Program-made: the position numbers and the translations under genes | Assembly (NCBI GenBank): GCA_965204725.1 | Contig: OZ242005.1 | Location: 992,001 to 1,056,000 of the forward strand | Direction: 5' to 3' | Length of the DNA stretch: 64,000 bases | DNA from: Candidatus Latescibacterota bacterium | GTDB taxonomy: Bacteria > Latescibacterota > UBA2968 > UBA8231 | Part shown: piece after piece, positions 2,086 through 42,928 of the stretch | Numbering within the stretch: the stretch's first letter is position 1 | How the letters are laid out: each line of letters starts with the position of its first letter | The notes under the pieces: model-generated | Told to the model about the DNA's origin: nothing | What the model saw: the letters and a program-made list of their open reading frames with translations, nothing else | Databases searched by the model: none

Positions 2086-2856
2086 ATGCGGGTTTCGCGC
2101 CTCCTATCGGCCTTGCTGCTGGCGGCCCCGGTTGCCGCCGAAGAGGTCTTCGTGCCGGCCGGTCCCTTCACCATGGGCATCGACCACCCGCGCGCCACCG
2201 ACGAAAAGCCCCGCCGCCAAGTCTATCTCAGCGCCTTTTCCATCGACCGCTACGAGGTCACCAACGCCCGCTTCGCCGCCTTTGTCGCGGCGACCGGCTA
2301 CCAGACGGAGGCGGAAAAACGCGGGGTGGAAAAGGCCGATGGCATTAGCTGGCGTCAGCCCCACGGCCCCGGCGCGGCGGCCGCTCCAAACCATCCGGTC
2401 GTCTATGTTAGCTGGCGCGATGCCGAGGCGTATTGCGCTTGGCGCGGCGGTCGGCTGCCCACCGAGGCCGAGTGGGAAAAAAGTGCCCGCGGCTCCGATG
2501 GTCGGCTCTGGCCTTGGGGCGCGGCGTTTGCCGCTGGCCGCGCCAATGTTTGGGGCGCGGAAGACGGCTATGCCGGGTTGGCTCCGGTCGGCTCTTTTCC
2601 CGCCGGCGCCAGCCCGTACGGCGCACTCGATCTAGCCGGTAACGTGTGGGAGTGGTGCGCCGACTGGTACGACGCCGACTATTATGCCACAGCACCGACC
2701 CAAGACCCGCAAGGGCCAGCGACTGGCCGCTTCAAGGTCTTGCGCGGCGGCTCGTGGATCAACCGCGGCCCCACGCTGCGGAGCATCAACCGCTTCGAGG
2801 TCCTGCCCGTAGAGCGCAGCCCCTATATCGGTTTCCGCTGCGCTCGCTCTCCATGA
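2086..2856 (+). CDS. Secreted FGE-sulfatase (SUMF1-fold) domain protein, probably non-catalytic
   Basis: Signal peptide; FTMG, EVTNARF, HPVVYVSW, RLPTEAEWEK, GNVWEW, RGGSW, GFRC; lacks the CxxxxC pair after RGGSW. Confidence 0.88.
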   Translation: MRVSRLLSALLLAAPVAAEEVFVPAGPFTMGIDHPRATDEKPRRQVYLSAFSIDRYEVTNARFAAFVAATGYQTEAEKRGVEKADGISWRQPHGPGAAAAPNHPVVYVSWRDAEAYCAWRGGRLPTEAEWEKSARGSDGRLWPWGAAFAAGRANVWGAEDGYAGLAPVGSFPAGASPYGALDLAGNVWEWCADWYDADYYATAPTQDPQGPATGRFKVLRGGSWINRGPTLRSINRFEVLPVERSPYIGFRCARSP

Positions 2857-4511
2857 CCCTGCTCATCGCGCTCTGGGCCGCACTTTTAGCGGCCTGCGAC
2901 GCGCCGACTCCCTCGCCGGCCCCCCCGCGCTTTGCCGAAGTGACCAAAGCCGCGGGACTTCACTTTGAGATGCGTTCCGGCGGGCAGGTCAAAAACTATA
3001 TCGTTGAAGCCAAGGGCGGCGGGGGCGCGTTTTTCGACTACGATGGCGACGGTTGGCTCGACATCTACTTGGTCAACGGCTCGCGGTTGGAAGGCTATCC
3101 CGACTCGACCTCGGCCCCGACTAACGCCCTCTACCGCAACTTGGGCGACGGCACCTTTAAGGACTATACCCGCTCAGCCGGGGTTGGCGATGCGGGTTGG
3201 GGCATGGGCTGCGCGGTGGCCGATTACGACCGGGACGGCGACCTCGACCTCTACGTGACCAATTACGGCCCCAACGTCCTGTACCGGAACGAGGGCACGG
3301 GCCGGTTCCGCGACGTCGGTCAGACCGCCGGCGTCGATCTAGCGGGCTGGAGCACCGGGGCTAGCTTCGGCGATTACGACCGGGACGGTGATCTCGACCT
3401 CTACGTGGCCCAGTACTTGGACTTTGCGCCCGAGCGCGTTCCGCCCCGGGGCGGAATGTGGAAGGGGGTTCTGGTCTTTGCTGGCCCATCCGGCCTCCCC
3501 GGGGCTCAAGACGTCCTGTACCGGAACGAGGGCGATGGCCGATTCCGCGACGTCACGCGCCAAGCCGGGGTCGATCAACCGACGCCGACCTACGGCCTGA
3601 GCGTCCTTTTTTGCGATTACGACCAAGACGGCGACTCAGACCTCTACGTCGCCAATGACTCGGCCCCCAATTTTCTCTATCGGAACGAAGGAAACGGCCA
3701 ATTCCGCGACGTCGGCGTGGAAGCTGGCGCCGCTCTCAGTGCCGAGGGTGGGGCGCAAGCGGGCATGGGCATCGCGTATGGGGACTGCGATGGCGATGGC
3801 GACAGCGACCTTTTGGTCACCCACTTTGAGGACGACTACAACACCCTGTACCGCAATCGCAGCGACGGGACCTTTGCCGTGGCCAGTGCTGCGGCCGGCC
3901 TCGCCGAGCCGAGCCTGCCCCACTTGGCCTTTGGCGCGTGTTTTTTCGATTACGACAACGACCAAGACCAAGACCTCTTCGTCGCCAACGGCCACGTCTA
4001 TCCCCAAATGCGACACCTGAACCCAGACGGGTACGCCGAACCCAACCAGCTTTTTGCCAATCAGGGCTTGGCCGCTGACTACCGCTTCGCGGAAGTGGTC
4101 GCCGGGGATATAAGCCGCCCGGCCGTCAGCCGCGGCGTCGCCCAAGGGGACTATGACAACGATGGAGATGTAGATCTTTTGGTCTGCAACCTCGACGGAC
4201 CGCCGCAACTGTTGCGCAACGACGGCGGCAACCAGCGCAACTATCTGAGCCTGCTGTTGGTCGGTACTGCGTCCAATCGCGATGGCATTGGGGCGCGGGT
4301 TTCCGCCGTCAGTGGCGGGGTCGAACAGGTCGTCGAGCGGGTCAGTGGCGGCAGCTTTCTCTCGCACAGCGACGGGCGCATCCACTTGGGCTTGGGCGCG
4401 AACACCATGGCCGAGCGCGTTGAAATCCACTGGCCTTCGGGCCGCGTCCAGCGCTTAGAGGACGTGGCCGCGAATCAGTTTTTGGTGGTAGAAGAACCGG
4501 GGCCGTACTGA
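2853..4511 (+). CDS. CRTAC1-family lipoprotein (FG-GAP/VCBS repeats + ASPIC/UnbV)
   Basis: LAAC lipobox; repeated DYDxDGDLD blades; C-terminal SNRDGIGARV...HLGLG...IHWPSG; ATGA overlap with upstream gene. Confidence 0.92.
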   Translation: MTLLIALWAALLAACDAPTPSPAPPRFAEVTKAAGLHFEMRSGGQVKNYIVEAKGGGGAFFDYDGDGWLDIYLVNGSRLEGYPDSTSAPTNALYRNLGDGTFKDYTRSAGVGDAGWGMGCAVADYDRDGDLDLYVTNYGPNVLYRNEGTGRFRDVGQTAGVDLAGWSTGASFGDYDRDGDLDLYVAQYLDFAPERVPPRGGMWKGVLVFAGPSGLPGAQDVLYRNEGDGRFRDVTRQAGVDQPTPTYGLSVLFCDYDQDGDSDLYVANDSAPNFLYRNEGNGQFRDVGVEAGAALSAEGGAQAGMGIAYGDCDGDGDSDLLVTHFEDDYNTLYRNRSDGTFAVASAAAGLAEPSLPHLAFGACFFDYDNDQDQDLFVANGHVYPQMRHLNPDGYAEPNQLFANQGLAADYRFAEVVAGDISRPAVSRGVAQGDYDNDGDVDLLVCNLDGPPQLLRNDGGNQRNYLSLLLVGTASNRDGIGARVSAVSGGVEQVVERVSGGSFLSHSDGRIHLGLGANTMAERVEIHWPSGRVQRLEDVAANQFLVVEEPGPY

Positions 4512-21711: not shown

Positions 21712-22428
21712 ATGTTCGGAATCATTCGCAACCCGTCCGGCGAAGTGCTGGACTACACTTTTCACGCCGGCGCGGAGGGATCACGGCACATCGCTGTCTT
21801 GGGGCACGGGGTGACCGGCAACAAGGACCGCCCGTTTGTCGTAGCACTGGCCGAGGGATTGGCGGTCGCTGGCATCCACGCGCTGCGCTTTTCCTTTGCT
21901 GGCAACGGCGCGTCTGAGGGCCGCTTTGCCGACGCGACCCTCTCCAAAGAGGTCGCAGATCTCGGCTCGGTTCTCAGTGCCTTGGACGGCTACTCGGTCT
22001 GCTATGTCGGCCACAGCATGGGGGGCGCGGTCGGCGTCTTGAGCCGCGACGAGCGCATCCGCCTGCTCGTCTCCTTGGCGGGCATGGTGCATACGCGCGC
22101 CTTTGCCGAGCGCGAGTTCGGCGCGGAGGTCCCCGATGAAGGCTGCATGTGGGACGACCCAGCCTGCCCGCTCTCGCAAGCGTACATGGACGACATGGCT
22201 CAGATCGACACCGTGGTCGAGCGCGGGGCCGAAATCGCCGTGCCTTGGCTGCTGATTCACGGTCGCGAGGACGACGTGGTGCCGATTGCCGACTCGCACG
22301 ACATCCTCGCCCGCGCCGGCGACAACGCCGAACTCGTCGTCATCAACGGGGCCGACCACGTCTTTAGCGAGCAGGTGCCGGCGATGGTCGAAACGGTGGT
22401 TGGCTGGCTACAAAGGCAGTGGGCATGA
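21712..22428 (+). CDS. Alpha/beta hydrolase
   Basis: HGVTG, FAGNGASEG, GHSMGG nucleophile elbow, IHGREDDVV, GADH. Confidence 0.9.
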   Translation: MFGIIRNPSGEVLDYTFHAGAEGSRHIAVLGHGVTGNKDRPFVVALAEGLAVAGIHALRFSFAGNGASEGRFADATLSKEVADLGSVLSALDGYSVCYVGHSMGGAVGVLSRDERIRLLVSLAGMVHTRAFAEREFGAEVPDEGCMWDDPACPLSQAYMDDMAQIDTVVERGAEIAVPWLLIHGREDDVVPIADSHDILARAGDNAELVVINGADHVFSEQVPAMVETVVGWLQRQWA

Positions 22429-22510
22429 GCCGCGCCCGTCCCGCCCGTCTGTTCCTATCTTTAAGACGCCCGGCAATTCCGCTGGCTGGGTGCGCTTTTC
22501 CAACGAAGCC

Positions 22511-26053: not shown

Positions 26054-27823
26054 ATGCCAACGTCTCCTAGCGCGATCTGGCGACTGGGGGTCGGCGCGTT
26101 GCTGTGGGCCGCCTGCGGGCCGGAAGAGCCTTCGGCACCGGTGCCCGCGCCCGAGTACGCCAAAGCACCGTCGGCCGAATACGCGGTGGGGCGCGGGCGG
26201 AAAGAGGCCCCGGCCGTGCGCTTCGTGGATGTGACGCAGGAGGCGGGTCTTGAATTTGAGCACGAGACCGGGGCGCGCGGCGACAAGTGGATGCCAGAAA
26301 CCATGGGCAGCGGCTGCGCGCTCTTCGACTACGATGGGGACGGCTGGCTCGACGTGTTCTTGGTCAACAGCGAAGGCTGGCGCGGCGAAAAGACCCCCGG
26401 CAAGCTCTACCGCAACCTCGGCAACGGCACCTTTGCCGACGCAACGGCCCGCACGGGCCTAGACTTTTCAGTCTATGGCATGGGCGCGACGATTGCCGAC
26501 TACGACGCCGATGACGACCCGGATATATACCTGACGACCTTGGGGCCGAACTTGCTCTTGCGCAACGACGCGGGTCGCTTTGTCGATGTGGCGCGGGAAG
26601 CGGGCGTGGCCGGCGCGGTCTGGCGCGACGACGCCGGTCACGAGAGTCCCGAGTGGTCAACGGGCGCGGCTTGGGTGGATGTGGATGGAGATGGCTGGCT
26701 GGATTTGTTGGTCACCAACTACGTGCGCTGGTCGCCCAGCACCGACATATACACCACGCTCGACGGCAGGGAAAAGTCCTACGCCACGCCCCAGCAGTAC
26801 CCCGGCTCAACGCCCCGGCTCTATCGGAATCTGGGCGAGGGCCGCTTCCGGGAGATAACCCAAGAAGCGGGCCTGCTGTTGCCCGAAGGCAAGTCCATGG
26901 GCGTAGCCATGACCGACTTTGATGACGACGGCCGCATCGACTTGGTCGTCACCAACGACACCCAGCCCAATTTCCTATTGCACAACTTAGGTGGGGGCCG
27001 CTTTGCGGAGCGGGGGCTCGCCGCGGGCATTGGCTACGACGAAACCGGCCGGGCGCGTGCTGGGATGGGCGTAGATATTGCCTCGGTTGCCAACGACGGC
27101 GTGCTTTCCATCGCCATTGGCAACTTCAGCCGCGAGGCGCTCTCGCTCTACAGCCAAGCCGGCGGCGCGGTCTTCGTCGATGCTGCGGGCCGAGCGCGGC
27201 TGATGCAGGCGACGCTGCGGCCGCTGACCTTTGGGCTGCGCTTTTTCGACTGCGATCTCGACGGCTATCAGGACCTAATCTTGGCCAATGGACACATCGA
27301 GCCAGAAATCAACTCGACGCAGAAGGAAATCGAGTACCAGCAGACGCCGCAGTTGTTTTGGAACGATGGCGACGGGCGGATGGTCGAGGTGTCCGAGCAG
27401 GCGGGCGGACTGTTCCGCAAGCCGCTGGTGGCGCGCGGGCTGGCGGTCGGCGATATCGACGCCGACCACGACTTGGATGTGCTGCTGACGACCAATGGCG
27501 GTCCGGCCTATCTATTGCGCAACGAAGGGCCGACCGGCCGCGCGGTGGCACTCGACCTGACGGGCAAGGCGCCCAACCGAGACGCCATCGGCGCCAAGGT
27601 GACCGCGCAGGTGGGCGAGCAGACGCAGGTCTTTATGGTGCGCACGGGGTCTTCCTATCTGAGCCACAGCCCTGCTACGCTGACCGTTGGCTTGGGCGAG
27701 GCCGAGCAGATTGACCGCTTGGAGATTCGCTGGCCGGATGGGACGGTGGAAACCCTTGAACAGCTCGCGGCTGGGACGCGCTACGCAATCGCGCAGGGTG
27801 CGGGCATTGTGGAGGCTGAGTAG
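26054..27823 (+). CDS. CRTAC1-family lipoprotein (FG-GAP + ASPIC/UnbV)
   Basis: WAAC lipobox; PETMGSG; DxDGDGWLD repeats; NRDAIGAKV...SSYLS...GLG...IRWPDG. Confidence 0.92.
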   Translation: MPTSPSAIWRLGVGALLWAACGPEEPSAPVPAPEYAKAPSAEYAVGRGRKEAPAVRFVDVTQEAGLEFEHETGARGDKWMPETMGSGCALFDYDGDGWLDVFLVNSEGWRGEKTPGKLYRNLGNGTFADATARTGLDFSVYGMGATIADYDADDDPDIYLTTLGPNLLLRNDAGRFVDVAREAGVAGAVWRDDAGHESPEWSTGAAWVDVDGDGWLDLLVTNYVRWSPSTDIYTTLDGREKSYATPQQYPGSTPRLYRNLGEGRFREITQEAGLLLPEGKSMGVAMTDFDDDGRIDLVVTNDTQPNFLLHNLGGGRFAERGLAAGIGYDETGRARAGMGVDIASVANDGVLSIAIGNFSREALSLYSQAGGAVFVDAAGRARLMQATLRPLTFGLRFFDCDLDGYQDLILANGHIEPEINSTQKEIEYQQTPQLFWNDGDGRMVEVSEQAGGLFRKPLVARGLAVGDIDADHDLDVLLTTNGGPAYLLRNEGPTGRAVALDLTGKAPNRDAIGAKVTAQVGEQTQVFMVRTGSSYLSHSPATLTVGLGEAEQIDRLEIRWPDGTVETLEQLAAGTRYAIAQGAGIVEAE

Positions 27824-31174: not shown

Positions 31175-32356
31175 ATGGCCATCCCCCGTTCTGCCCAAAA
31201 CAGTGTGCTTGCGGCACTGGCGCAGTTCCCGGCTGTTGCTTTGGTCGGCCCGCGGCAGTGCGGAAAAACAACCTTGGCCCGCATGCTTGACCCATCGCCC
31301 GCGCCCGTTTTTTTCGACTTAGAGGACCCGCGGGACCGGCTGGTCTTGGAAGACCCCTTGCGGGCGTTGCAGGTCGGCGAACTCGTCGTCATTGACGAAG
31401 CGCAGCGCATGCCGGAGTTGTTCCCCGTTTTGCGGGTGCTCATCGACCGGAACCGTCGCCCCGGGCAGTTCCTCCTGCTGGGTTCGGCCACGCCCGATCT
31501 TCGTCGGCAGAGTGCCGAAAGTCTGGCCGGTCGGTTGCTGACCCTAGAGCTTACGCCGTTCACCGCCCAAGAGGTGGTCCCCAACCGCTTCTCGTTGGAA
31601 GTGCTGTGGGAACGAGGCGGCTTTCCCCTGTCGCTGCTAGCCACCACGAGCGAGCAGAGCGTTCTGTGGCGTCAGCAGTATGTGCGCGACATAACCGAAC
31701 GCGATTTGCGGCTCTTGGGATTTGATCTGCCGCCGGCGAGAATGTATCGCTTCCTGCAAATGCTGGCCCACAACCACGGCCAACTTTGGAATGCCAGCCA
31801 ACTGGCGCGCAGTCTCGAAGTAGGCGCCACGACCGCCGGGCGCTATCTCGACGTCATCCAGCAAACTTACCTCGTGCGGTGTCTGCCGCCTTACCTGCGG
31901 AATACGGGAAAACGCCTTACCAAATCCCCCAAGGTGTACATCCGCGACTCGGGCATCCTCCATTCCCTGCTCGCCCTGCAAAGCCGCGAACAGGTGCTTG
32001 GACATCCGGTGGCCGGTTATAGCTGGGAGGGTTTTGCCGTGGAGCAGTTTGCCGCTGTGCTGCCGCTTGGATGGGAACTGGCCTTTTGGCGCACGGCGAC
32101 CGGCGCAGAAATTGACCTGCTCCTGCTGCACGGCAGTCACCCGATCATCGCGGTCGAAATGAAGATGAATACCACCAATCCCCGCCCCGGTAGAGGGTTT
32201 TACGAAGGGTGTAAGGAGCTGGCCCCGCGTGAAAAGTGGGTCATCTACCCCGGCGACGAGCCCTTGGCCCTGCCCAATGGGGTGTTGGCCCTGCCGTTGG
32301 CTGAGGCTGTAGAGCGGTTTGTGTCTATCGCTCGGGGCGGTCGCCATCAGCCCTAG
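31175..32356 (+). CDS. AAA_14 ATPase with DUF4143 domain
   Basis: GPRQCGKT, IDEAQ, LLGS, ESLAGR, GGFP, KSPKVYIRDSG, EIDLL...VEMK. Confidence 0.9.
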   Translation: MAIPRSAQNSVLAALAQFPAVALVGPRQCGKTTLARMLDPSPAPVFFDLEDPRDRLVLEDPLRALQVGELVVIDEAQRMPELFPVLRVLIDRNRRPGQFLLLGSATPDLRRQSAESLAGRLLTLELTPFTAQEVVPNRFSLEVLWERGGFPLSLLATTSEQSVLWRQQYVRDITERDLRLLGFDLPPARMYRFLQMLAHNHGQLWNASQLARSLEVGATTAGRYLDVIQQTYLVRCLPPYLRNTGKRLTKSPKVYIRDSGILHSLLALQSREQVLGHPVAGYSWEGFAVEQFAAVLPLGWELAFWRTATGAEIDLLLLHGSHPIIAVEMKMNTTNPRPGRGFYEGCKELAPREKWVIYPGDEPLALPNGVLALPLAEAVERFVSIARGGRHQP

Positions 32357-32373: not shown

Positions 32374-35004
32374 ATGACTGAACGCCCACGCCTCGCCGCG
32401 CGCCTCGCGGGTGCCAGCCTGTTGCTCGGTGGCTTGGCCTTCAATCCGTTGGCCTTGGCGCATTTTTTTGCGGAGCCGCCGCTGGGCACTGAGGGGGTCA
32501 TCGCCCTCCAGATTGCCTTAATCGTTAGCGGCGGTTGGCTCGTTTGGCGCGGCCCCCGGTTGCCGCTAATTCCCCTCGCGCTCATCGCGGTCGCCTTGGG
32601 CGCACTGGCCCTGCTCGGGGGCTACGGCACGGCCCGCTCGCTGCAAAAGGTGCAGGACCGCAACCGGCTCTTGGCGACTATTGACCGCAGCGAACAGGTG
32701 CAGCAGCACCTAAGCGGCGAGGTCCTGCCGCTGCTCGCCTTGGGGATCGCGGCCCCGGCGCGCTCGCTTTTTGCCGACACGGTTGTGGTCGCGGATGTGG
32801 AGCAGATCGCCGAGGCGACCGAAGTCGTCCCGGCACTGGGCATTAAGCGCCAGCGCTGGGAAATTGCACCCGCCGAGCCGGTTTACGACGACGTCATCGC
32901 GCTGTGGGGGCCGCTCTGGGCCGCACTGGATTGGCACGACTATGCGGCCTTCCATCTTGAGACCGGGCATTTCCTCGATGCGGAGGCCGCGATCTACCAA
33001 GCCCGCTTGCGCTTCGACGCCGCGGCGCAGACCAAAGGCGGGGAGCGTGCGCAAATTCGGGCTGGGCTGGTGCTGGAGTGGCAGCAGCAGGACGATGCCA
33101 CTTGGCGGATCCAGCGCTGGGAAACCGAATCGCTGGAGATGCTCACGCAGCCGCACACACTCTTTGCCGCAGCCCGCGACGAGGTGCTCCCCGCCCAAGC
33201 TCGGGTTTCGCGCCACGCGGCCTTGGTGCTCCAGTCGTTTCGCGACTCCGCGTTCATCGCCCCGCACCGCTATTTCACGCGCCAAGCCTTTGATCGCCAT
33301 CCCGGCGTCAGCGTCGTGGATATTGACGCCGACGGGTACGACGACCTGTACCTTGCCGTGCGCCAAGGTAGGAACATGCTGTTGCACAATGGCGGCGACG
33401 GCACGTTCACCGAGCGCGCGGCCCAATACGGCCTCGATGTGGAGCACCACACGGCCGCGGCGCTCTTCGCCGACTTTGACAACGATGGCGACCCGGATGT
33501 ATTCCTCGGCCGCACGCTCGCGCCCAGCCGCTACTTGGTCAACGAGAACGGGTGCTTTGCCCCCCGCGACTTGGGTGCTGACGTATTGCCGTTCCTCGTA
33601 GCCTCGATCTCGGCCGCCGATTACGACCGCGACGGGCTGCTCGATGTGTACTTCTCCACTTATGCGGCGCGGATGGTGCTCGACGCGGTCTCCACAGCCC
33701 CGCGCGGTGCGCCTTGGGGCGGTGCGCTGTTGGCCGACTTCCTGCCGGCGGACCGCGCTCGGGCACTCTACGATCTGAGCCGCGACCGCATCGGCCGGCT
33801 CATCCACGACGCGCCCGGACCGCCCAATGTCCTGCTACGCAACCTCGGCAACGGACGCTTCGCGCCCACGGTAGCCGGGTGGCGCAATACCTTACAGGCG
33901 ACTTGGGCCGATTACGACCGCGACGGCGACCCGGATCTCTACCTCGCCAACGACTTTGCCACCAACAACTTGCTTCGCAATGATGGCGGTGCTCTGGTTG
34001 ATGTCACCGCGGAGAGTGGGGCCGCGGACTTGGGCTTTGGCATGGGCGCGAGTTGGGCCGATTACGACGGGGATGGCCGCCAAGACCTGTACGTGACCAA
34101 CATGCACAGCAGTGCCGGTCGCCGCATCACGGCTGCGGCCGGGCCGGCCGGCGCGGCTTTTGCCCCGTTGGCCCGGGGTAGCTCGCTCTTGAGGAACAGC
34201 CGGGCGGGCTTCGTCCGGGTTGCGGATTCGCCGGTGGAGGACGGCGGCTGGGGTTGGGGCGGCCAGTTTTTGGACTTTGACAACGACGGCGACCTCGACA
34301 TCTACGCTCCGAGTGGGTACTACACCCCGCCGGCTGCCGTCGCTCTGCCCGAGGATACCTGAAGCCTGTTTTGGCGCACGGTCGTGCGCCATGGTCGGAC
34401 GGACGGGGCATACAACGTGGGAGCGCGGCTCGACGCGGGGGCCTCGCTCAGCGGCTACCAGCGCAACCGTCTATTCCTCAATGTAGAAGGCCGCGCCTTC
34501 CTCGATGTGTCGGGCTTGTCGGCGGCGGATTCGCCGGCCGATGGTCGCGCCTTCGCCACCTTGGACTTCGACCGCGATGGCCGCATTGACTTGGCGGTCG
34601 TCAATGCCAACGAGCCGCTCTGCGAATTGTTTGCCAACCGCAGCAAGGCGGGGCACTTCCTCGCGTTGCGCTTTGTCGGGGGCAATGACCGCGCCGCGCC
34701 CACGAGCACGTGGAGTGTGCGCGATGGCTATGGTGTGCAAGTGGAAGTGGATGTCGGCGGGAGGACGCTGCTGCGCGAGCACCGCGCCGGCGAGGGCTTC
34801 TCGGCCCAGAACAGCGCGACCCTAATTGTCGGCTTGGGCGCGCACCTACGAGCGGAGGCCGTGCGCGTACGCTGGCCTTCGGGGCGAATGCAGCGCACAA
34901 CCGACGTGGCGGCTGGGACGCTATTGACCGCGTACGAAGACCCCCGGCACTCGCCTACGGGTGCGGCGTTTGTGGTGGTGCCGTATCGCCCCGGCGAGCC
35001 GTAA
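32374..35004 (+). CDS. Membrane-anchored FG-GAP + ASPIC/UnbV (CRTAC1-like) protein, 876 aa if TGA 34360-34362 is read as selenocysteine
   Basis: ORFs 32374-34362 and 34384-35004 are in the same frame, separated by one TGA; together they give the complete CRTAC1 architecture; SECIS-like hairpin follows the TGA. Confidence 0.75.
34360..34391 (+). promoter_or_regulatory. Candidate bacterial SECIS element with its UGA
   Basis: TGA-agcctgttt-TGGCGCAC-GGTC-GTGCGCCA: perfect 8-bp stem, GGUC loop at +21..+24 from the U of UGA. Confidence 0.7.
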
Positions 35005-35494: not shown

Positions 35495-38400
35495 TCAGCG
35501 AATCAACGCCAACTTAGCCGTTTGGACGGCATCGCCGGCTTGCAGCACGGCCCAATAGACCCCGGACGCGGCCTCTGCGCCCGCCGCCGTGCGGCCATCC
35601 CAGCGCACTTGGTGCCATCCGGCTTCCGCCCAGCCATCGGCCAACACGCGAATGGGCTGGCCCATCAGGTTATAGACGGCAAGCCGCACGGGACTGGCGG
35701 TAGCGACGGCAAAGGGAATGGTCACTTCGGCGTTGAACGGCGCGGGAAAGGGATCGCCTAAACCGGATACCAGTTCATCCGGTAGCTCAGACGGGAATCG
35801 CGTATCGGCGACCCGCTTGGCATTGGCCGGTCGCCGCGACGTCACAGACACATCTTTCAACTGCCATCTATCAAAAGATGAGGTGCGGTCTTGGTTGAAG
35901 AAATTGCGGAACTCGATGATGTTTGTGCCGGATCGTAGGTCTGTTCTCTCCAAGGGGAGATACCAATCCGTCCAATCCTCGCTCGCTGACGGCGTGGTGT
36001 ATAGCTCTTCGTTGAGAAAAATGTCCACTTCGCCATCACTTATTTCTTTTAATGAAAAGTAACAATAGAGCTCGCGACTAGTCCCTTCGTCAAAGCCAAA
36101 CTTGACGCTTTTGGGATTTTTGCTAACCGCTGGTGGACTGTAGCCGAAAAGCCCTCGGCTCGGAAGGGGCTCTACCGACTCGCCTTCGATTTCGAGACGC
36201 TTCGTCCCGGATGTCCCATTCGAGGTCCTAACCCACACATCGCCGCTCTGAGCCTCATCTGGAACCTCGACGACAATTCGGCGGTCCGACCAACTCACAT
36301 AGTCCGCACCAGAAGGCCGTACACTAGAGAAAAACAAAACGTATCCCGTGCCGCGGCTGGAGCCGAAATTACCACCCGTGAGCGTGAGACGATCTCCTGT
36401 TGCTACACTCGTCGGCGAGATGTTCGTCAGATACGGGCTTGTTATGTTCAAGCGGATGAAATTACTGGTGCCTTCTGCCGTTCTAACGGTCAGGTTGCCG
36501 GGCGGCGTATTGCGGGGTATGCGAAATCGGATCGTTCCATTCGTCCAAGAGGTGAACGAAGTGATCGCGGTCGAACCAATCCGCACGGAGCTGCTCCCCC
36601 GTGAGGAACCGAAGTTACCCCCGCTTACAGTAACAATGGTATTGGTCCTTGCGGTCTGCGGAGAGATGCTACTGATCCAAGGCGCGGTGCTTCCGATTTC
36701 GAGGTGCTTCGTCTCCGACGTCCCATTTGAGGTCGTAACCCGCACATCGTCGCTCGGAGCCTGATCTGGAACCTTGACGACGATTCGGCGGTCCGACCAA
36801 CTCACGTAGTCCGCAGCAGAGGCCCGCACAGACCCAAACAAAACGTACCCCGTGCCTCGTCTGGAGCCGAAGTTACCGCCCGTTAATGTGAGACGATCTC
36901 CCGGTTGTACGTGCGTCGGCGAGATCCTCGTCAGATACGGGCTCGTTATTGCTAAGCGGATGGAATTGCTGGTGCCTTCTGTCGTTCTGATCGTCAGGTT
37001 GCCGGGGGGCGTATTAAGGGGAACGCGAAATCGGATCGATCTACTCGACCAAGAGGTGAACGAAGTGATAGTTACCGAACCAATCCGTACAGAACTGCTC
37101 CCCCGAGAGGAACCGAAATTCTCTCCGCTTACGGTAACAACGTTATTGCTCCTTACGGTCCCCGGGGAGACGCCGCCGATCCAAGGCGAGGTAACTGTCA
37201 GCCGCGCCGTGTCGCTTCCGTTCGTCGTTACAACCTGTAGATCGCCGGTACGCGCTCCCGACGGCACTCGCACTCGGATCTGAGTATCGCTCCAGCTAAC
37301 ATAGTGGGAAGCACTAGGCATCTTACCCCCGAAGAAAACCACCCGGCTTGTGCCCCGATTCGCGCCGAAGGCCCGCCCACGGATAGTTACGACTTGACTG
37401 TACCGCACCCGGCTAGGCGATATGGAAGTAATTTGAGGAGAAGTAACTTGAGGAGCCTGCATAACCGGCAGTACGAGTTTGCCGTATCCAAAAGTATTGT
37501 CCCTTCCCCGAGGGCCTATGTCAACCGTTGCCTCGACCAGCGCGTCCCACAAATCGTCACGTGAATACGATGGATTAGCCGACTTGATTAGAGCCGCCGC
37601 GCCAGCGACGTGGGGCGCAGCAGCGGAAGTCCCAGTATAGCCATAAAAAACCTCCGACTCTCCATAAGAAGCTGTCGATACTCCACTAGGCGCGACGAGT
37701 TCGGGTTTGAAGCGGCCATCGGTGGTGGGACCGCGCGAGCTGTAGTCCGCAATTATGCCCAAGTCGTATTCGTCGAAATGGACCGCCCCGACGCTCATGG
37801 CCCCTCGGGCATCCGCCGGACTCCCGATACTGTTCTCCGCCACCGAATACTTTTCAAAATCGTGATTAAGCGACCATATTTTTAGCCTTCTAGGCCGGGC
37901 GTCGTTCTCGCTGCGAACAGAAATCTCGTACTTTCCCGATTGCTCTGCCTTGATTTCGATTCGTTCTACAGGGATATGGCTACTGAGATCTCTTTGAGGA
38001 TCGATACTGTAAGCCACAAATTCGAGATCGCCGGAGGGGTTCACAAAATCGAGGTACAAGTCGTAGTCCTCGCGGGAAGTGGGCCAATCATTCCACGTCA
38101 AGAAAATCCTTATCTCTTCCCCTTTCTCCGCTTCAATCCCTATCCCTTGGTCTTCTCCGCTAAAGTTCTGCCAACCGTCATCATCGGAATCAGACCAAAA
38201 CCCGTAGTAATGGCTCTTTGCGTCATTGCCCGCTGCATCTACCCAGAGAATGCCCTTATCTGCGGCGTCATTTACAATGTCGCAGGCTATTCCTCGCCCG
38301 TCGCCAATGCCGGTTCCAAACCAGCCCAGGGAGTGATTGATTATGTCAATCCCCTCTCGTATGCAGAAATCCTTGGCATTCTCCAAGTCAAGCAGATCGT

Positions 38401-39100
38401 CCACCTTCAGAAGCGTGAGTTCGGCTTCCGGTGCCACATCGTAGATAATCTCGGCACACGCCGTGCCGTGGACATCCTCGCCAGCGTATATCCCCTCGTC
38501 CGTATAGTCGAAATACCGCCAAGTCGCCGGCATGTCTGGCCCTAATTGGTCCGCCCCCTTAAATCCTCCGTCAATAACGGCCACCTTGACCCCTTGGCCT
38601 CTGACGCCTGCATTGTAATTATTTATAGAGTTGATGAGTCGCCGACCTTCGCTCCAAGTCTGTTGCGTGTGCGGCCGGAACGGTCGGCGGACAAAGCTCA
38701 CCCCCGGCAGTTCCGACACCGCCAACAACGACGACGCCGGAACCGAAACCCGCATCAAACTCTTGGACTGCGCCAACACCTCGACGCCCAGTGCCGCCAT
38801 AGACGACGTATCAATCGACGCCGACGCTTGCCCGCGCTGGGGAACCAAAATGACGACGACCGTATCCTCAACGCCTCCCGCACGAGTTAGCTTGCCCGCT
38901 GGCGGCACGGCCAACTCCCACAACGCACTCTGTATCTTGGCCGGGCCGTCGGGCTTGACCGGGGCAGAGTTTAGGTCCTGTCCCCAAAGGGGTACATAGC
39001 CGAGGACGCCCAAGAAAAGGGCGGTCATAACTTTACTGCGGAAAACGACTTTACGAGTACTCATATTGATGGCCTTCGCTGAAGTTAGGGGTTTTGACAT
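35495..39100 (-). CDS. Secreted S8 (subtilisin-like) peptidase with five IPT/TIG repeats and C-terminal FlgD-Ig domain
   Basis: Catalytic triad VAVIDGG / HGTACAE / GTSAAAPHVAG; AAGN; five (S/A)PxIxxISP...GxxFG repeats; PFPAPFN...WDGRT...GVYW. Confidence 0.92.
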   Translation of the reverse strand: MSKPLTSAKAINMSTRKVVFRSKVMTALFLGVLGYVPLWGQDLNSAPVKPDGPAKIQSALWELAVPPAGKLTRAGGVEDTVVVILVPQRGQASASIDTSSMAALGVEVLAQSKSLMRVSVPASSLLAVSELPGVSFVRRPFRPHTQQTWSEGRRLINSINNYNAGVRGQGVKVAVIDGGFKGADQLGPDMPATWRYFDYTDEGIYAGEDVHGTACAEIIYDVAPEAELTLLKVDDLLDLENAKDFCIREGIDIINHSLGWFGTGIGDGRGIACDIVNDAADKGILWVDAAGNDAKSHYYGFWSDSDDDGWQNFSGEDQGIGIEAEKGEEIRIFLTWNDWPTSREDYDLYLDFVNPSGDLEFVAYSIDPQRDLSSHIPVERIEIKAEQSGKYEISVRSENDARPRRLKIWSLNHDFEKYSVAENSIGSPADARGAMSVGAVHFDEYDLGIIADYSSRGPTTDGRFKPELVAPSGVSTASYGESEVFYGYTGTSAAAPHVAGAAALIKSANPSYSRDDLWDALVEATVDIGPRGRDNTFGYGKLVLPVMQAPQVTSPQITSISPSRVRYSQVVTIRGRAFGANRGTSRVVFFGGKMPSASHYVSWSDTQIRVRVPSGARTGDLQVVTTNGSDTARLTVTSPWIGGVSPGTVRSNNVVTVSGENFGSSRGSSSVRIGSVTITSFTSWSSRSIRFRVPLNTPPGNLTIRTTEGTSNSIRLAITSPYLTRISPTHVQPGDRLTLTGGNFGSRRGTGYVLFGSVRASAADYVSWSDRRIVVKVPDQAPSDDVRVTTSNGTSETKHLEIGSTAPWISSISPQTARTNTIVTVSGGNFGSSRGSSSVRIGSTAITSFTSWTNGTIRFRIPRNTPPGNLTVRTAEGTSNFIRLNITSPYLTNISPTSVATGDRLTLTGGNFGSSRGTGYVLFFSSVRPSGADYVSWSDRRIVVEVPDEAQSGDVWVRTSNGTSGTKRLEIEGESVEPLPSRGLFGYSPPAVSKNPKSVKFGFDEGTSRELYCYFSLKEISDGEVDIFLNEELYTTPSASEDWTDWYLPLERTDLRSGTNIIEFRNFFNQDRTSSFDRWQLKDVSVTSRRPANAKRVADTRFPSELPDELVSGLGDPFPAPFNAEVTIPFAVATASPVRLAVYNLMGQPIRVLADGWAEAGWHQVRWDGRTAAGAEAASGVYWAVLQAGDAVQTAKLALIR

Positions 39101-41601: not shown

Positions 41602-42852
41602 CTAGCTCAAAAACCACGCAATCGGCACGGCCGTAATCCCCTCAGCTAACGCCTGAACTCGCCCATCGTTGGACAGTACGAGGGCATGCAATACGGGTTT
41701 GTCGAGAATATCTTCCAATCGCCGCAGGTGACGGGCATCGCCCGCGGCGACCTGTTCGGTCATTTTGATTTCGATGGGAATAAATCCGGCCTCGGTTTCC
41801 AACAACAGATCGACCTCCCGTCCGTCGGCGGTGCGCAGATGGTGCAAGGTCACCGGCAGGCGGCTGTTCTTAATTTGCTTGTAGATCTCGGCAATCACCG
41901 CGCTTTCAAACTCGCCTCCCGTAGGCAAACCGCGCCGACCGAGCAACGCACGTTGCACCCCCGGATCGACAAAGTGGACCTTGGGTGCTTTGGACAAGCG
42001 CTTCTGCATATTGCGAAACCAAGGCTGGAGCAAAATGATCTGATAGCTGATCTCCAAATAGGTTACAAAACGCTTGGCCGTCTTGGTTGCAATCCCGGCC
42101 TGATTGGCCAAATTGGCCAGATTTAAGAGGCCGCCGGTCATCCCGGACAGGGCTTTTTGCGCCCGCACAAAAGGTTCCAATTCTCGCAAGTTGGCCAAGT
42201 CGCGCACATCGCGCTGGATATAGGTCTGGATGTAATTGGCTAGCCACTCGTATTTCTCGGCGGCGTTTAGGGTTTCGTCTGCCAACGCCGGCATGGCCCC
42301 AAACTGCAAATAGTCGTCCAACAGTTGGCGCACCCGCGCATAGCGCGTCTCTTGCCTTGGCATCCCCCACAACATGTCAGCGGGCGTCCCGCTTCTGAGC
42401 CATTCAATCAGGCGCGATTCGGCCACGGGATCGCGCCACGATTCGGTCAGCATTTCCGCAAACGTCAGCGGATATAGTTCGACCAAAGAGACCCGTCCGG
42501 CCAAGCTCTCGCGGATTTTTTCTATCAACAGAATTTGGCTCGATCCCAAAAGGATGTAGCGCGCATCGTCATACAGATCATAGACCGCCTTGATTGACTC
42601 TACCAAGCGGGGGGCCTTTTGCACCTCGTCGAGAATCGCCACCGGATACCGTTGTCGCCATTGCGCGGCCGATAGGGCTAGAAAATCAGGTCGCACGACG
42701 GGATCCTCCAGCGAGAGATACGCATACTCGGCAAAGCCGGCTCGCACGAGCGTGGTTTTACCCGTTTGCCGCGCCCCGGTCAGCACGATGATTCGCCCGA
42801 ACTTGGACGCTGATTTTTGTTTTAGATCGGGAAGTAAGGCTCTGTTTTTCAC
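41602..42852 (-). CDS. AAA_14 ATPase with DUF4143 domain
   Basis: GARQTGKT, LDEVQK, ESLAGR, KAPKVHFVDPG, EVDLL...IEIK. Confidence 0.9.
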   Translation of the reverse strand: MKNRALLPDLKQKSASKFGRIIVLTGARQTGKTTLVRAGFAEYAYLSLEDPVVRPDFLALSAAQWRQRYPVAILDEVQKAPRLVESIKAVYDLYDDARYILLGSSQILLIEKIRESLAGRVSLVELYPLTFAEMLTESWRDPVAESRLIEWLRSGTPADMLWGMPRQETRYARVRQLLDDYLQFGAMPALADETLNAAEKYEWLANYIQTYIQRDVRDLANLRELEPFVRAQKALSGMTGGLLNLANLANQAGIATKTAKRFVTYLEISYQIILLQPWFRNMQKRLSKAPKVHFVDPGVQRALLGRRGLPTGGEFESAVIAEIYKQIKNSRLPVTLHHLRTADGREVDLLLETEAGFIPIEIKMTEQVAAGDARHLRRLEDILDKPVLHALVLSNDGRVQALAEGITAVPIAWFLS

Positions 42853-42928
42853 GGTAGGCCCCTTTTGGGCGTAAAATCGGGCATTAAGGCCATAATTTAC
42901 GCCGAATAGAGGCGCTAGCAAGGTGGGG

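Follow-up and report, generated by a model that had tools for sequence, protein, structure and literature searches.

An in-frame UGA almost certainly read as selenocysteine in a CRTAC1-like FG-GAP/UnbV propeller protein of a Candidatus Latescibacterota bacterium

Comparative sequence analysis indicates that the in-frame TGA of an FG-GAP/UnbV gene in a Candidatus Latescibacterota genome is almost certainly read as selenocysteine (Sec). The overall explanation that we favour, with a probability of roughly 0.87, is that of an 876-residue UGA-Sec protein with a CRTAC1-like propeller, for which a hairpin immediately downstream of the UGA serves as bacterial SECIS element (bSECIS). According to this explanation, the gene at positions 32374-35004 of the window (the whole stretch of 64,000 nucleotides analysed here) would yield a single 876-residue protein, the UGA at 34360 would be decoded as Sec by the host's SelA, SelB, SelD and tRNA-Sec, and the hairpin at 34372-34391 would act as the bSECIS. 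The product would be a membrane-anchored, probably extracytoplasmic, CRTAC1-like FG-GAP propeller followed by an UnbV_ASPIC domain, with Sec663 placed at the N-terminus of a helix within a subfamily-specific insertion. A previous reading of the window, made from the sequence alone, had proposed Sec at residue 663 of an 876-residue beta-propeller, and this proposal is now supported by the decoding machinery, the conserved TGA, the hairpin, the Cys-containing homologues and the predicted fold.

The upstream open reading frame (32374..34362, + strand) encodes 662 aa residues and terminates in a TGA at 34360-34362, past which the frame is unbroken (PEDT-TGA-SLFWRTVVRH) up to a TAA at 35002-35004, resulting in 876 residues of which the TGA represents residue 663. 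The junction of two open reading frames in one frame, as described in the sequence-only reading, was recovered together with all of its described elements, and the parts of the gene are as follows.

32374..35004, + strand: putative selenoprotein gene, entire (frame, Pfam, orthologues, AF2 model)
32374..32640, + strand: hydrophobic N-terminal helices, residues ~5-88 (AF2 helices 5-22, 25-31, 38-59 and 66-123)
32752..33171, + strand: alpha+beta domain, residues ~127-266 (AF2 strands 133-266; conserved consensus)
33286..34683, + strand: FG-GAP beta-propeller with DxDxDG Ca-type motifs, residues ~305-770 (Pfam, AF2, fold search)
34360..34362, + strand: UGA/Sec codon, residue 663, at the start of predicted helix 663-673 (comparative genomics)
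34372..34391, + strand: bSECIS-type hairpin (folding, covariation, bSECIS criteria)
34621..34623, + strand: Cys750 (alignment of congeneric orthologues)
34726..34929, + strand: UnbV_ASPIC domain, residues 785-852, wholly 3' of the TGA (Pfam E 4.7e-15; pLDDT 94-98)

The N-terminal helices are presumed to form a membrane anchor that would leave the remainder of the protein extracytoplasmic, a topology suggested by the hydrophobicity of the sequence. The alpha+beta domain is retained in the Sec forms and its consensus is conserved over clades in the alignment; no Pfam match was obtained for residues ~127-266, and from its predicted secondary structure we would guess that it is NTF2-like. Pfam analysis of the read-through product assigned FG-GAP_3 (121.8 bits over five stretches), FG-GAP (71.1 bits) and UnbV_ASPIC (55.7 bits, cut-off 23.4). 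The propeller is split by the TGA and, as had been proposed, the downstream part supplies both a propeller blade, with the motif DFDRDGRID at residues ~731-739, and the UnbV_ASPIC domain. Each of the two intact paralogues of the window (2646/2853..4511 and 26054..27823) carries the Ca-binding motif and the NxLF strand within one open reading frame, in agreement with the earlier description of these elements as contiguous, and the TGA site is situated within an insertion of approximately 31 residues relative to both.

An AF2 model of the 876-residue read-through product (pLDDT 91.9, pTM 0.90) presents a complete CRTAC1-like propeller, with Sec663 as the N-terminal residue of the predicted helix 663-673 and a pLDDT of 88 for the block 661-670. 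The best fold match in the PDB is murine CRTAC1 (9etn_A; E 2.6e-24, TM 0.71 on the target, rmsd 4.0), and 9etn is likewise the sole PDB match by sequence. The likeness to the CRTAC1/ASPIC/UnbV family extends to FG-GAP_3, FG-GAP and UnbV_ASPIC all scoring above their Pfam cut-offs, while the window protein differs in its insertion of some 31 residues with the Sec at the N-terminus of a helix, which the ordinary window paralogues do not possess, and in the addition of the presumed N-terminal membrane anchor and the alpha+beta domain; most Sec-form relatives furthermore carry an added redoxin-like CxxC domain.

The TGA might alternatively be a genuine stop, producing a truncated 662-residue propeller with the downstream frame as a separate gene or a remnant. 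Public gene calls do terminate at this position, most matches being approximately 660-680 aa in length, with a coverage of just 38% of the junction query, and some of them bearing the name 'VCBS repeat-containing protein'; a GTG is also located 24 nt downstream. This GTG (34384), the sole start codon nearby, is however the opening codon of the 3' arm of the hairpin, buried in the stem as previously noted, and constitutes a Val codon there. Termination would moreover forfeit a propeller blade and the UnbV domain, yet the read-through product is predicted with high confidence as one fold, and uninterrupted relatives exist with Cys or other sense codons at the column. The codon is also always TGA, with zero spacing, a continuous frame and conserved downstream residues in over 100 loci across phyla (see below), and we therefore regard a genuine stop as highly improbable.

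Conservation of the TGA was observed at every level of relatedness. Orthologues are 66–86% identical over the full length with one TGA apiece. The TGA occupies the identical column in 20 of 20 congeneric loci and in all 54 best matches (E ≤ 1.8e-22) obtained among 168 genomes of the phylum. The same holds for 80 of 80 genome-contig loci from at least five phyla, the contig titles referring to Gemmatimonadota/Latescibacterota, Longimicrobiales, Acidobacteriota, Proteobacteria, Verrucomicrobiales/Akkermansiaceae and Planctomycetota. A stop codon at this column is never TAA or TAG, the downstream frame is continuous with zero spacing throughout, and downstream residues are conserved in-frame in over 100 loci from different phyla, at 40–86% identity. 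Homologues arranged as two genes in different frames, which would have spoken for separate genes, were never seen. Weaker paralogue matches (e.g. L049-L056) flagged as containing a TGA were considered as additional Sec sites and rejected, as these codons are ordinary gene-end stops.

The mere presence of a stop codon could point to an assembly or sequencing error, or to a recent pseudogene. Contigs from four runs belonging to four studies, one run possibly being the source of the assembly itself, are nonetheless identical at 34360-34362 and at 34363-34394, although elsewhere in the 361 nt compared two of them show 7 and 9 differences. The codon being shared by these contigs and by over 100 independent genomes, and purifying selection acting on either side of it, this explanation is effectively refuted, as is the concern that the TGA might be unique to the assembly or unsupported by reads.

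Concerning the hairpin, its 5' arm tggcgcac (34372-34379) and 3' arm gtgcgcca (34384-34391) are fully complementary and enclose the loop ggtc (34380-34383), which corresponds to +21 to +24 when the U of the UGA is taken as +1. The hairpin begins 9 nt after the TGA and its apical loop lies 17 nt after the UGA, so that the perfect 8-bp stem and GGUC loop are present just as first described. The bSECIS model specifies an apical loop of 3-9 nt, an upper stem of 4-16 bp, a G in loop positions 1-2, a UGA-to-loop distance of 16-37 nt and a minimum free energy of ≤ −7.5 kcal/mol (PMC13188914, Fig. 2 legend). With its 4-nt GGUC loop, 8-bp stem, 17-nt spacing and −15.1 kcal/mol, the hairpin falls within all of these limits (PMC13188914). 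Across 64 distinct sequences, the loop G22 is invariant (64/64) and U23 is at least 90% conserved, and 84.8% of stem cells are paired versus 17–64% in slid controls. Covariation, which had been put forward as a source of support, is present as double-sided changes at three stem pairs, a level reached by none of 500 shuffles, but is modest in extent, with 6 of 512 cells doubly changed. Two further clades display other hairpins at the same place, namely an 8-bp stem with a CGUGC loop and a 6-bp stem with a CGUGUC loop. In the Cys paralogues the SECIS-like hairpin is missing, the energy there being −3.9 to −4.3 kcal/mol versus −15.1 kcal/mol here.

When 760 windows of 10 codons were ranked by synonymous diversity in 22 congeners, those at 662 and 666 came third and fourth from the bottom, and synonymous sites are frozen at codons 668-671 and 673; since the stem overlies the conserved peptide WRTVVR, part of this nucleotide conservation may be protein-driven. 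Folding of the single sequence yielded z = −1.48, with 15 of 200 shuffles equally stable in this GC-rich context, and the significance of the hairpin accordingly derives from its conservation over more than 100 loci rather than from the stability of one sequence. A search of Rfam produced no match at E ≤ 1 within 34250-34500, a result that is uninformative because a hairpin of this kind may well fall outside the curated families.

The arrangement resembles that of Escherichia coli fdhF, where GGUC at approximately +22 to +25 of the SECIS is bound by SelB: both have an in-frame UGA, a hairpin about 10 nt downstream and a small GGUC/GU loop approximately 17 nt after the UGA. The fdhF stem contains a bulged U that has no counterpart in the simple, fully paired 8-bp helix of the window hairpin, and the window protein falls outside every known selenoenzyme oxidoreductase class.

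The likeness to the E. coli system extends to SelA, SelB, SelD and tRNA-Sec, all of which are encoded in the genome from which the window derives. The tRNA-Sec scored 70 bits and bears the anticodon TCA, while SelA, SelB and SelD scored 477.9, 350.8 (cut-off 242) and 373.9 bits, respectively; the SelD is of the Sec type, its own gene containing one in-frame TGA. A lack of Sec machinery, named beforehand as an argument against Sec, can consequently be dismissed. SelA was also identified in 49 of the 50 genomes bearing the TGA form, the sole exception being an 80% complete genome, although this co-occurrence is only mildly informative because SelA is common in the phylum (131 of 168 genomes) and related genomes are not independent.

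Decoding of the UGA by a suppressor tRNA or a near-cognate one, carrying Trp, Cys or Arg, was considered in light of these data; the hairpin would in that case stimulate read-through rather than act as a SECIS. It would be compatible with the Trp found at about the Sec column in distant paralogues (DSY-W-YDF), with the W at the column in database protein P0161, and with some close relatives carrying Arg, Gly or Ser codons one step from TGA. On the other hand, the hairpin fits the bSECIS model in its position, its size and its G-U loop, it is missing from the Cys paralogues, and SelA accompanies the TGA form in 49 of 50 genomes; we also know of no comparable programme of hairpin-driven UGA read-through in bacteria that has been kept across phyla. 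Such decoding is consequently deemed very improbable, if slightly less so than a genuine stop, and Sec insertion is retained as the preferred reading.

Cys, the presence of which in some homologues was expected under a Sec assignment, occupies the Sec column in several database relatives (P0095, P0125, P0138, P0156, P0211 and P0227) and in one paralogue in the same genome. Many other full-length relatives possess S, E, D, N, A, R, Q, T or G at this column, so that the scaffold does not depend on this position, and the relatives as aligned here do not display the classic pattern of all-Cys homologues. Within 22 congeneric orthologues, Sec663 and Cys750 (22/22) are the only invariant Cys/Sec positions. 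Cys at position 750 is found in 26 of 32 short forms versus 1 of 69 long forms, and Cys750 may tentatively be regarded as a candidate resolving thiol in the window clade, which is without the thioredoxin-like domain, on evidence that is weak because it stems from a single clade.

In relatives, C-terminal Redoxin, AhpC-TSA or Thioredoxin_8 domains with a WCxxC motif are found on proteins with a signal or anchor sequence, and Pfam assigned Redoxin/AhpC-TSA domains in seven of eight long forms. The CxxC is retained in 68 of 69 long Sec forms and in 3/3 Cys forms. Where the column holds any other residue, retention falls to 6 of 44 forms, or to 6 of the 24 in which a thioredoxin-like segment is clearly aligned. 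This pattern of retention, together with the fusion of the domain, suggests a redox relay between Sec and the CxxC. The tree on which Sec/Cys and CxxC were compared contains at least eight state changes, and correction for it left six independent pairs (approximately 3.2 concordant, 0.1 opposite and 2.7 unchanged; median p 0.25); the association as judged from these sequences is thus not significant after phylogeny, in a test that is underpowered. A complex prediction for the Cys form P0125, pairing propeller residues 212-792 with thioredoxin-like residues 806-937, scored 0.00 (mark 0.32) and is neutral on contact.

Redoxin domains fused to catalytic modules are exemplified by the Trx-Msr fusions, such as PilB. 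When set against the extracytoplasmic TlpA/ResA-type redoxin fusions, the relatives differ in that the Sec lies approximately 250 residues upstream in the propeller and not in the redoxin domain itself, and the window protein differs in having no redoxin domain. Pfam detected no thioredoxin-fold CxxC domain in the window protein, and no thioredoxin gene was found near the locus in the window. It appears an even proposition that Sec663 is redox-active and recycled by the fused TlpA/redoxin-like CxxC in most members, or by Cys750 or a separate thiol oxidoreductase in the window clade. A bolder proposal, which we consider possible but somewhat short of even, is that the Sec helix and the redoxin CxxC (or Cys750) together make up the catalytic centre of a novel type of extracytoplasmic selenoenzyme, acting as reductase or peroxidase on a propeller-held ligand. 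Under this proposal, the state changes on the tree would reflect repeated loss of the catalytic module, leaving catalytically dead scaffolds. The redox or metal-binding role advanced in the sequence-only reading is strengthened on account of the CxxC domain in most relatives, though the function itself is one that we infer.

A non-catalytic function may be envisaged in which Sec663 is likewise decoded but would act as a ligand for a soft metal or metalloid, the CxxC domain being its metal-handling partner; TlpA-like proteins do act in copper delivery. Several observations would accord with this, including the acidic or polar residue ahead of the column (D at −2 in nearly all forms), the D, E, N, Q and S found at the column in relatives as possible hard-metal ligands, and the richness of the propeller in Ca-type DxDxDG sites. 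Thiol-disulfide chemistry nevertheless usually employs just such a pairing of a helix N-terminal Sec with a redoxin-type WCxxC domain, the column is occupied by A, R, L, I, G and T as well, and alignments near the site reveal no second conserved Cys or His ligand. Several catalogued selenoproteins do bind metal (PMC13188914, Table 1), and on balance we view the ligand role as unlikely, though far less so than the alternatives to Sec decoding discussed above.

The Sec-containing FG-GAP/UnbV proteins apparently constitute an uncatalogued, widespread family of bacterial selenoproteins. None of the 119 prokaryotic selenoprotein families in a 2026 catalogue has an entry with PF13517, PF01839, PF07593, VCBS, ASPIC or CRTAC1 (PMC13188914, Table 1). 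The window protein matched no NCBIfam model at E ≤ 0.01, the main texts of a few selenoprotein papers from 2025–2026, the supplements of which may list more, do not refer to VCBS, FG-GAP, ASPIC, CRTAC, propeller or Gemmatimonad, and a literature search returned no paper connecting the CRTAC1/ASPIC/UnbV family with selenocysteine. The family shares with most catalogued ones a single Sec, Cys homologues and a tie to thioredoxin-fold CxxC chemistry, and differs from them in that a beta-propeller, instead of a thioredoxin-like fold, harbours the Sec. As public gene calls stop at approximately 660-680 residues, the family is mis-annotated throughout the databases, and this affects many marine and sponge-associated Gemmatimonadota/Latescibacterota, Planctomycetota, Verrucomicrobiota, Acidobacteriota and Proteobacteria.

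To our knowledge, the prokaryotic selenoproteins known so far are, with few exceptions, oxidoreductases that have a thioredoxin fold or a metal cofactor, and the presence of Sec in a Ca-type beta-propeller would broaden the structural range of Sec use. With over 80 naturally occurring SECIS variants and their compensatory changes, the family provides a benchmark for bacterial SECIS predictors. ASPIC/UnbV/CRTAC1 proteins are abundant in bacteria, yet we are aware of no activity ascribed to them and of no report of a redox role for CRTAC1-family proteins, and the Sec offers a first hint of redox chemistry in the FG-GAP/UnbV family. For the ASPIC/UnbV/CRTAC1 family, the Sec/Cys column and its link to the CxxC redoxin domain point to a defined residue and a specific, testable chemistry and, should the selenoenzyme proposal prove true, it would represent the first catalytic function for this family and the first beta-propeller selenoprotein.

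The TGA at 34360-34362 closes a forward-strand ORF of 662 aa (32374..34362), and 213 further codons follow in the same frame up to a TAA at 35002-35004. When this TGA is taken as selenocysteine (Sec, U), the product (P0001) has 876 residues with U at position 663, in the context ...ALPEDT-U-SLFWRTVVRHGRTDG..., so that the two ORFs join across the TGA as the sequence-only reading had described, with matching coordinates. Pfam analysis of the product identified FG-GAP_3 (five stretches), FG-GAP and an UnbV_ASPIC domain at residues 785-852, which confirms that the latter is encoded downstream of the TGA. Comparison with the window's two intact paralogues places the TGA inside an insertion of approximately 31 residues, flanked by the DFDNDGDLD motif and the NRLF strand; public gene calls end the protein at the TGA. 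Comparison of homologues shows UGA 34360 to behave as a conserved sense position with a conserved, compensated hairpin of the bSECIS type (the bacterial hairpin 3' of a UGA that directs Sec insertion), in genomes with Sec machinery, and we consider it probable (about 0.87-0.9) that this UGA is decoded as selenocysteine.

The selenoprotein gene is neighboured by genes for a DUF4143 ATPase, a DUF4926 protein, an S8 peptidase with TIG domains and a 2-hydroxyacid dehydrogenase. The AAA_14/DUF4143 gene at 31175-32356 stops 18 nt ahead of the selenoprotein start codon.

Other genes of the window
22286-25396 (+): 1036-aa protein with multihaem signatures (MtrC/MtrF-like domain, paired CXXCH, cytochrome c554), then TPR repeats
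31175-32356 (+) and 41602-42921 (-): AAA_14/DUF4143 ATPase genes
35495-39100 (-), convergent with the selenoprotein gene: 1201-aa subtilase (Peptidase_S8) with five IPT/TIG domains and a FlgD-Ig-like C-terminal domain

In a search of 40 relatives and the window's own genome, a full-length orthologue (66-86% identical) with one TGA was found in 22 of the 25 genomes of the genus, own included. The orthologue in genome G015 carries one TAA besides the TGA, and that in G017 (L048, contig G017:C284) is in two pieces, which lie in different frames on either side of a stretch of unknown bases, probably marking a gap in the assembly rather than a broken gene; G016 and G018 hold only a more distant TGA-bearing homologue. 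The TGA column was identical in all 20 congeneric loci compared (own included). When A2, a profile of the sequence around the TGA junction, was run against all 168 genomes available for the phylum, one TGA was present in 54 of the 54 listed matches at E <= 1.8e-22 and in a broken copy at E 3.4e-17, the remaining matches (E 9.3e-19 and weaker) having no TGA. A cross-phylum scan with A2 over one GTDB genome per species, from which 80 of 203 confirmed loci were kept, revealed TGA at the column in 80 of 80 (78 by pattern, L141 and L143 by eye), and returned no Cys-codon locus although one of its two patterns targeted a Cys codon. The record titles of these loci name Latescibacterota/Gemmatimonadota MAGs, Longimicrobiales, Gemmatimonadales, Acidobacteriota and Acidiferrales, as well as Proteobacteria/Gammaproteobacteria, Akkermansiaceae/Verrucomicrobiales and several Planctomycetota. 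Distant subfamilies with the TGA read KDT-U-SLFWRHVLAS, PDG-U-(S/A)C(V/I)WQAVV, ADL-U-SFFWRTVV, RDL-U-SFFWRQVV and VDL-U-SSFWLTVV. One Sec-form gene, L163 from a Longimicrobiales MAG, has a Pro/Arg-rich tail where its relatives continue into the UnbV end and a redoxin domain, and has the appearance of a long form that was frameshifted or misassembled.

Contigs of four sequencing runs, each from a different study and mostly of sponge or marine metagenomes, show no difference at positions 34360-34394; elsewhere in the 361 nt compared, two of these contigs have 7 and 9 differences. One of the runs could be the origin of the assembly. The TGA is therefore not unique to this assembly and occupies the same column in homologues, which the sequence-only reading had named as support. 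Runs X8-X16, labelled sponge or marine metagenomes and derived from several studies, contain near-identical copies of this stretch, and the lineage consequently appears to be sponge- or marine-associated.

The perfect 8-bp stem with a GGUC loop, reported to lie nine nt past the TGA, is present in the sequence: tggcgcac (34372-34379) is fully paired with gtgcgcca (34384-34391). This single GC-rich sequence is no more stable than its shuffles (z -1.48; 15 of 200 fold as well), and the weight of the hairpin must therefore come from comparison. According to the bSECIS consensus in the Fig. 2 legend of PMC13188914, the apical loop has 3-9 nt and the upper stem 4-16 bp, there is a G within the first two loop positions, usually with G or U after it, the UGA-loop distance is 16-37 nt and the MFE is <= -7.5 kcal/mol; the window hairpin (loop GGUC, stem 8 bp, spacing 17 nt, -15.1 kcal/mol over a 33-nt span) agrees with this consensus in all four respects. 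Across 64 distinct 39-nt windows with a 4-nt loop, aligned without gaps, G22 of the loop never varies and U23 has a conservation of at least 90%; the 8-pair helix is paired in 84.8% of 512 cells, against 17-64% with the 3' arm slid, and its six inner pairs are kept in 84-100% of sequences. Two-sided changes occur at three pairs (C-G to U-A, A-U to G-C and C-G to U-A), amounting to 6 of the 512 cells, and none of 500 shuffles matched the observed pairing and double-change values; the covariation that had been looked to as support is real but modest. One subfamily has at the same place the hairpin UGGCGCCA-CGUGC-UGGCGUCG, with a C-to-U/G-to-A double change in L069, and a second has GGCUGU-CGUGUC-ACAGCC. 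No hairpin was found at this position in the Cys paralogues (-3.9 to -4.3 kcal/mol for the own-genome copy, L096 and L097). The 22 congeneric orthologues have a gene-wide synonymous codon diversity of 0.277, which falls to 0 at codons 668-671 and 673, with the 10-codon windows from 662 and 666 ranking 3rd and 4th lowest of 760, protein and RNA constraints being entangled here since the stem encodes the conserved peptide WRTVVR.

The window's genome (G000; 5.43 Mb, 2 contigs) encodes the full Sec-decoding machinery, for which a check had been proposed: tRNA-Sec (70 bits; called tRNA-SeC, anticodon TCA, by ARAGORN), SelA (477.9 bits), SelB (350.8 bits against a cut-off of 242) and SelD (373.9 bits; L018, G000:C1:3670414-3671337, outside the window). 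This SelD is a selenoprotein too, with one in-frame TGA in the usual context ...VACGG-U-ASKL... and a hairpin 3' of it (-31.6 kcal/mol over 55 nt). SelA (E <= 1e-30) is found in 131 of the 168 genomes of the phylum and in 49 of the 50 with the TGA form, the lone genome without it being G081 (80% complete, 820 contigs); this co-occurrence is consistent with Sec decoding, and is a weak test because SelA is common in the phylum and related genomes are not independent.

Cysteine stands at the Sec column in some full-length homologues, which had been named as supporting evidence: in P0095 (AKDY-C-STFWRHDIY), in P0125, P0138, P0156, P0211 and P0227, and in a paralogue of the 740-aa class in the window's own genome (G000:C1:4182723-4185482, outside the window; AQDY-C-TTFWTHDIY), which has neither a hairpin after the Cys codon nor a thioredoxin-like tail and whose orthologues of approximately 740 aa occur in at least 17 congeners. 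An exhaustive HMMER search with A2 against 1.84 billion representatives gave 9486 matches at E <= 1e-3; among the best 150, the 72 motif-bearing sites scored at the column, a few of which are repeats elsewhere in long proteins, carry S (20), E (10), D (10), N (8), C (4), A (4), R, Q and T (3 each) and others. When 99 long forms were placed in a quick tree, built with the Sec column masked, the Sec/Cys state switched at least 8 times. The many residues at the column imply that Sec is not required for the scaffold and that Sec/Cys has been replaced many times. Close full-length relatives P0079, P0127, P0128, P0147 and P0182 have Arg exactly at the column (e.g. HDT-R-SVVF, RDT-R-SVYWRHVV), which suggests recent Sec loss, since CGA and AGA, both Arg codons, can arise from TGA by a single change.

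The 102 distinct C-terminal parts of Sec forms comprise 33 short (< 260 residues past Sec), mostly from the window's clade, and 69 long. Among eight long forms examined with Pfam, seven have Redoxin/AhpC-TSA/Thioredoxin_8 after UnbV_ASPIC; L092 also has TPRs and the tail of L159 is different. Tails were aligned and the residue at the Sec column was scored against the state of the CxxC position.

State of the CxxC position by residue at the Sec column
Sec: CxxC intact 68, one Cys 0, no Cys 1; total 69
Cys: CxxC intact 3, one Cys 0, no Cys 0; total 3
Other residue: CxxC intact 6, one Cys 8, no Cys 30; total 44

Of the 'other' forms, 24 have a thioredoxin-like segment that aligns clearly, and six of these keep the CxxC; in several Ser, Glu and Asp forms the domain is recognisable with its cysteines gone (P0169 matches AhpC-TSA at 3.5e-7). 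This pattern is the expected trace of a Sec/Cys-CxxC relay, and is suggestive rather than established; of the only six independent pairs available to a phylogeny-aware test, approximately 3.2 changed in the same direction, 0.1 in opposite directions and 2.7 not at all (median p 0.25). The window's clade has no thioredoxin-like domain, and no thioredoxin gene lies near the selenoprotein gene. Cys750 (34621-34623, NANEPL-C-ELF) is invariant in 22 of 22 congeneric orthologues. With a Cys here in 26 of 32 short forms versus 1 of 69 long forms, this residue is nearly restricted to Sec forms without the fused redoxin domain; Cys750 and that domain form a complementary pattern, but one drawn from essentially one clade.

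AlphaFold2, run on a 55-row protein alignment (A4), modelled the 876-residue read-through product with a mean pLDDT of 91.9 and a pTM of 0.90.

Predicted architecture of the read-through product (AlphaFold2)
Residues 5-22, 25-31, 38-59 and 66-123: N-terminal helices, with hydrophobic stretches in the first ~88 residues
Residues ~127-266: alpha+beta domain
After the alpha+beta domain: propeller
Residues 789-870: beta domain

Sec663 starts a predicted helix (663-673), with a pLDDT of 88 at 661-670 and 66 in the next loop (671-680). The predicted fold is similar to that of murine CRTAC1 (9etn_A), the best PDB fold match (E 2.6e-24, TM 0.71 on target) and also the sole PDB sequence match. Since a Ca-motif blade (DFDRDGRID, ~731-739) and the whole UnbV domain are encoded 3' of the TGA, a protein ending at residue 662 would lack part of the propeller. 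Proteins of other clades open with signal-peptide or lipobox-like sequences, as judged by eye, from which an extracytoplasmic location is inferred.

In the proposed mechanism, SelB·GTP·Sec-tRNA-Sec would bind the GGUC loop and Sec663 would be inserted; the mature protein would be membrane-anchored with its propeller outside, and Sec663, at the N-terminus of a helix, may be the reactive centre. Most lineages would use the fused TlpA-like CxxC domain for re-reduction; in the window's lineage, this would fall to Cys750 or a free oxidoreductase. We would put the chances of such a redox relay of Sec663 with the redoxin domain or Cys750 at about even, the main functional rival being that Sec663 serves as a metal or metalloid ligand.

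FG-GAP, VCBS, ASPIC/UnbV and CRTAC1 have no entry among the 119 prokaryotic selenoprotein families in Table 1 of a 2026 catalogue (PMC13188914), and VCBS, FG-GAP, ASPIC, CRTAC, propeller and Gemmatimonad are absent from the main texts of PMC13188914, the deep-Sep paper (PMC12013277) and the BSepDB paper (PMC13326102), whose supplements might list more. P0001 matched no NCBIfam model, a collection covering most selenoprotein models of the 119-family catalogue. Full-text literature searches returned nothing relevant tying selenoproteins or selenocysteine to FG-GAP, VCBS, UnbV/ASPIC, CRTAC1 or these taxa, and no paper pairing a bSECIS with a propeller. As the catalogue, NCBIfam and the literature gave no match and gene calls end at the TGA, this selenoprotein family is apparently undescribed so far. 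Recoding itself is well known and no new mechanism is involved; what the finding would add is a widespread, mis-annotated family in which Sec is placed in a new fold, giving the ASPIC/UnbV/CRTAC1 family its first testable chemistry.
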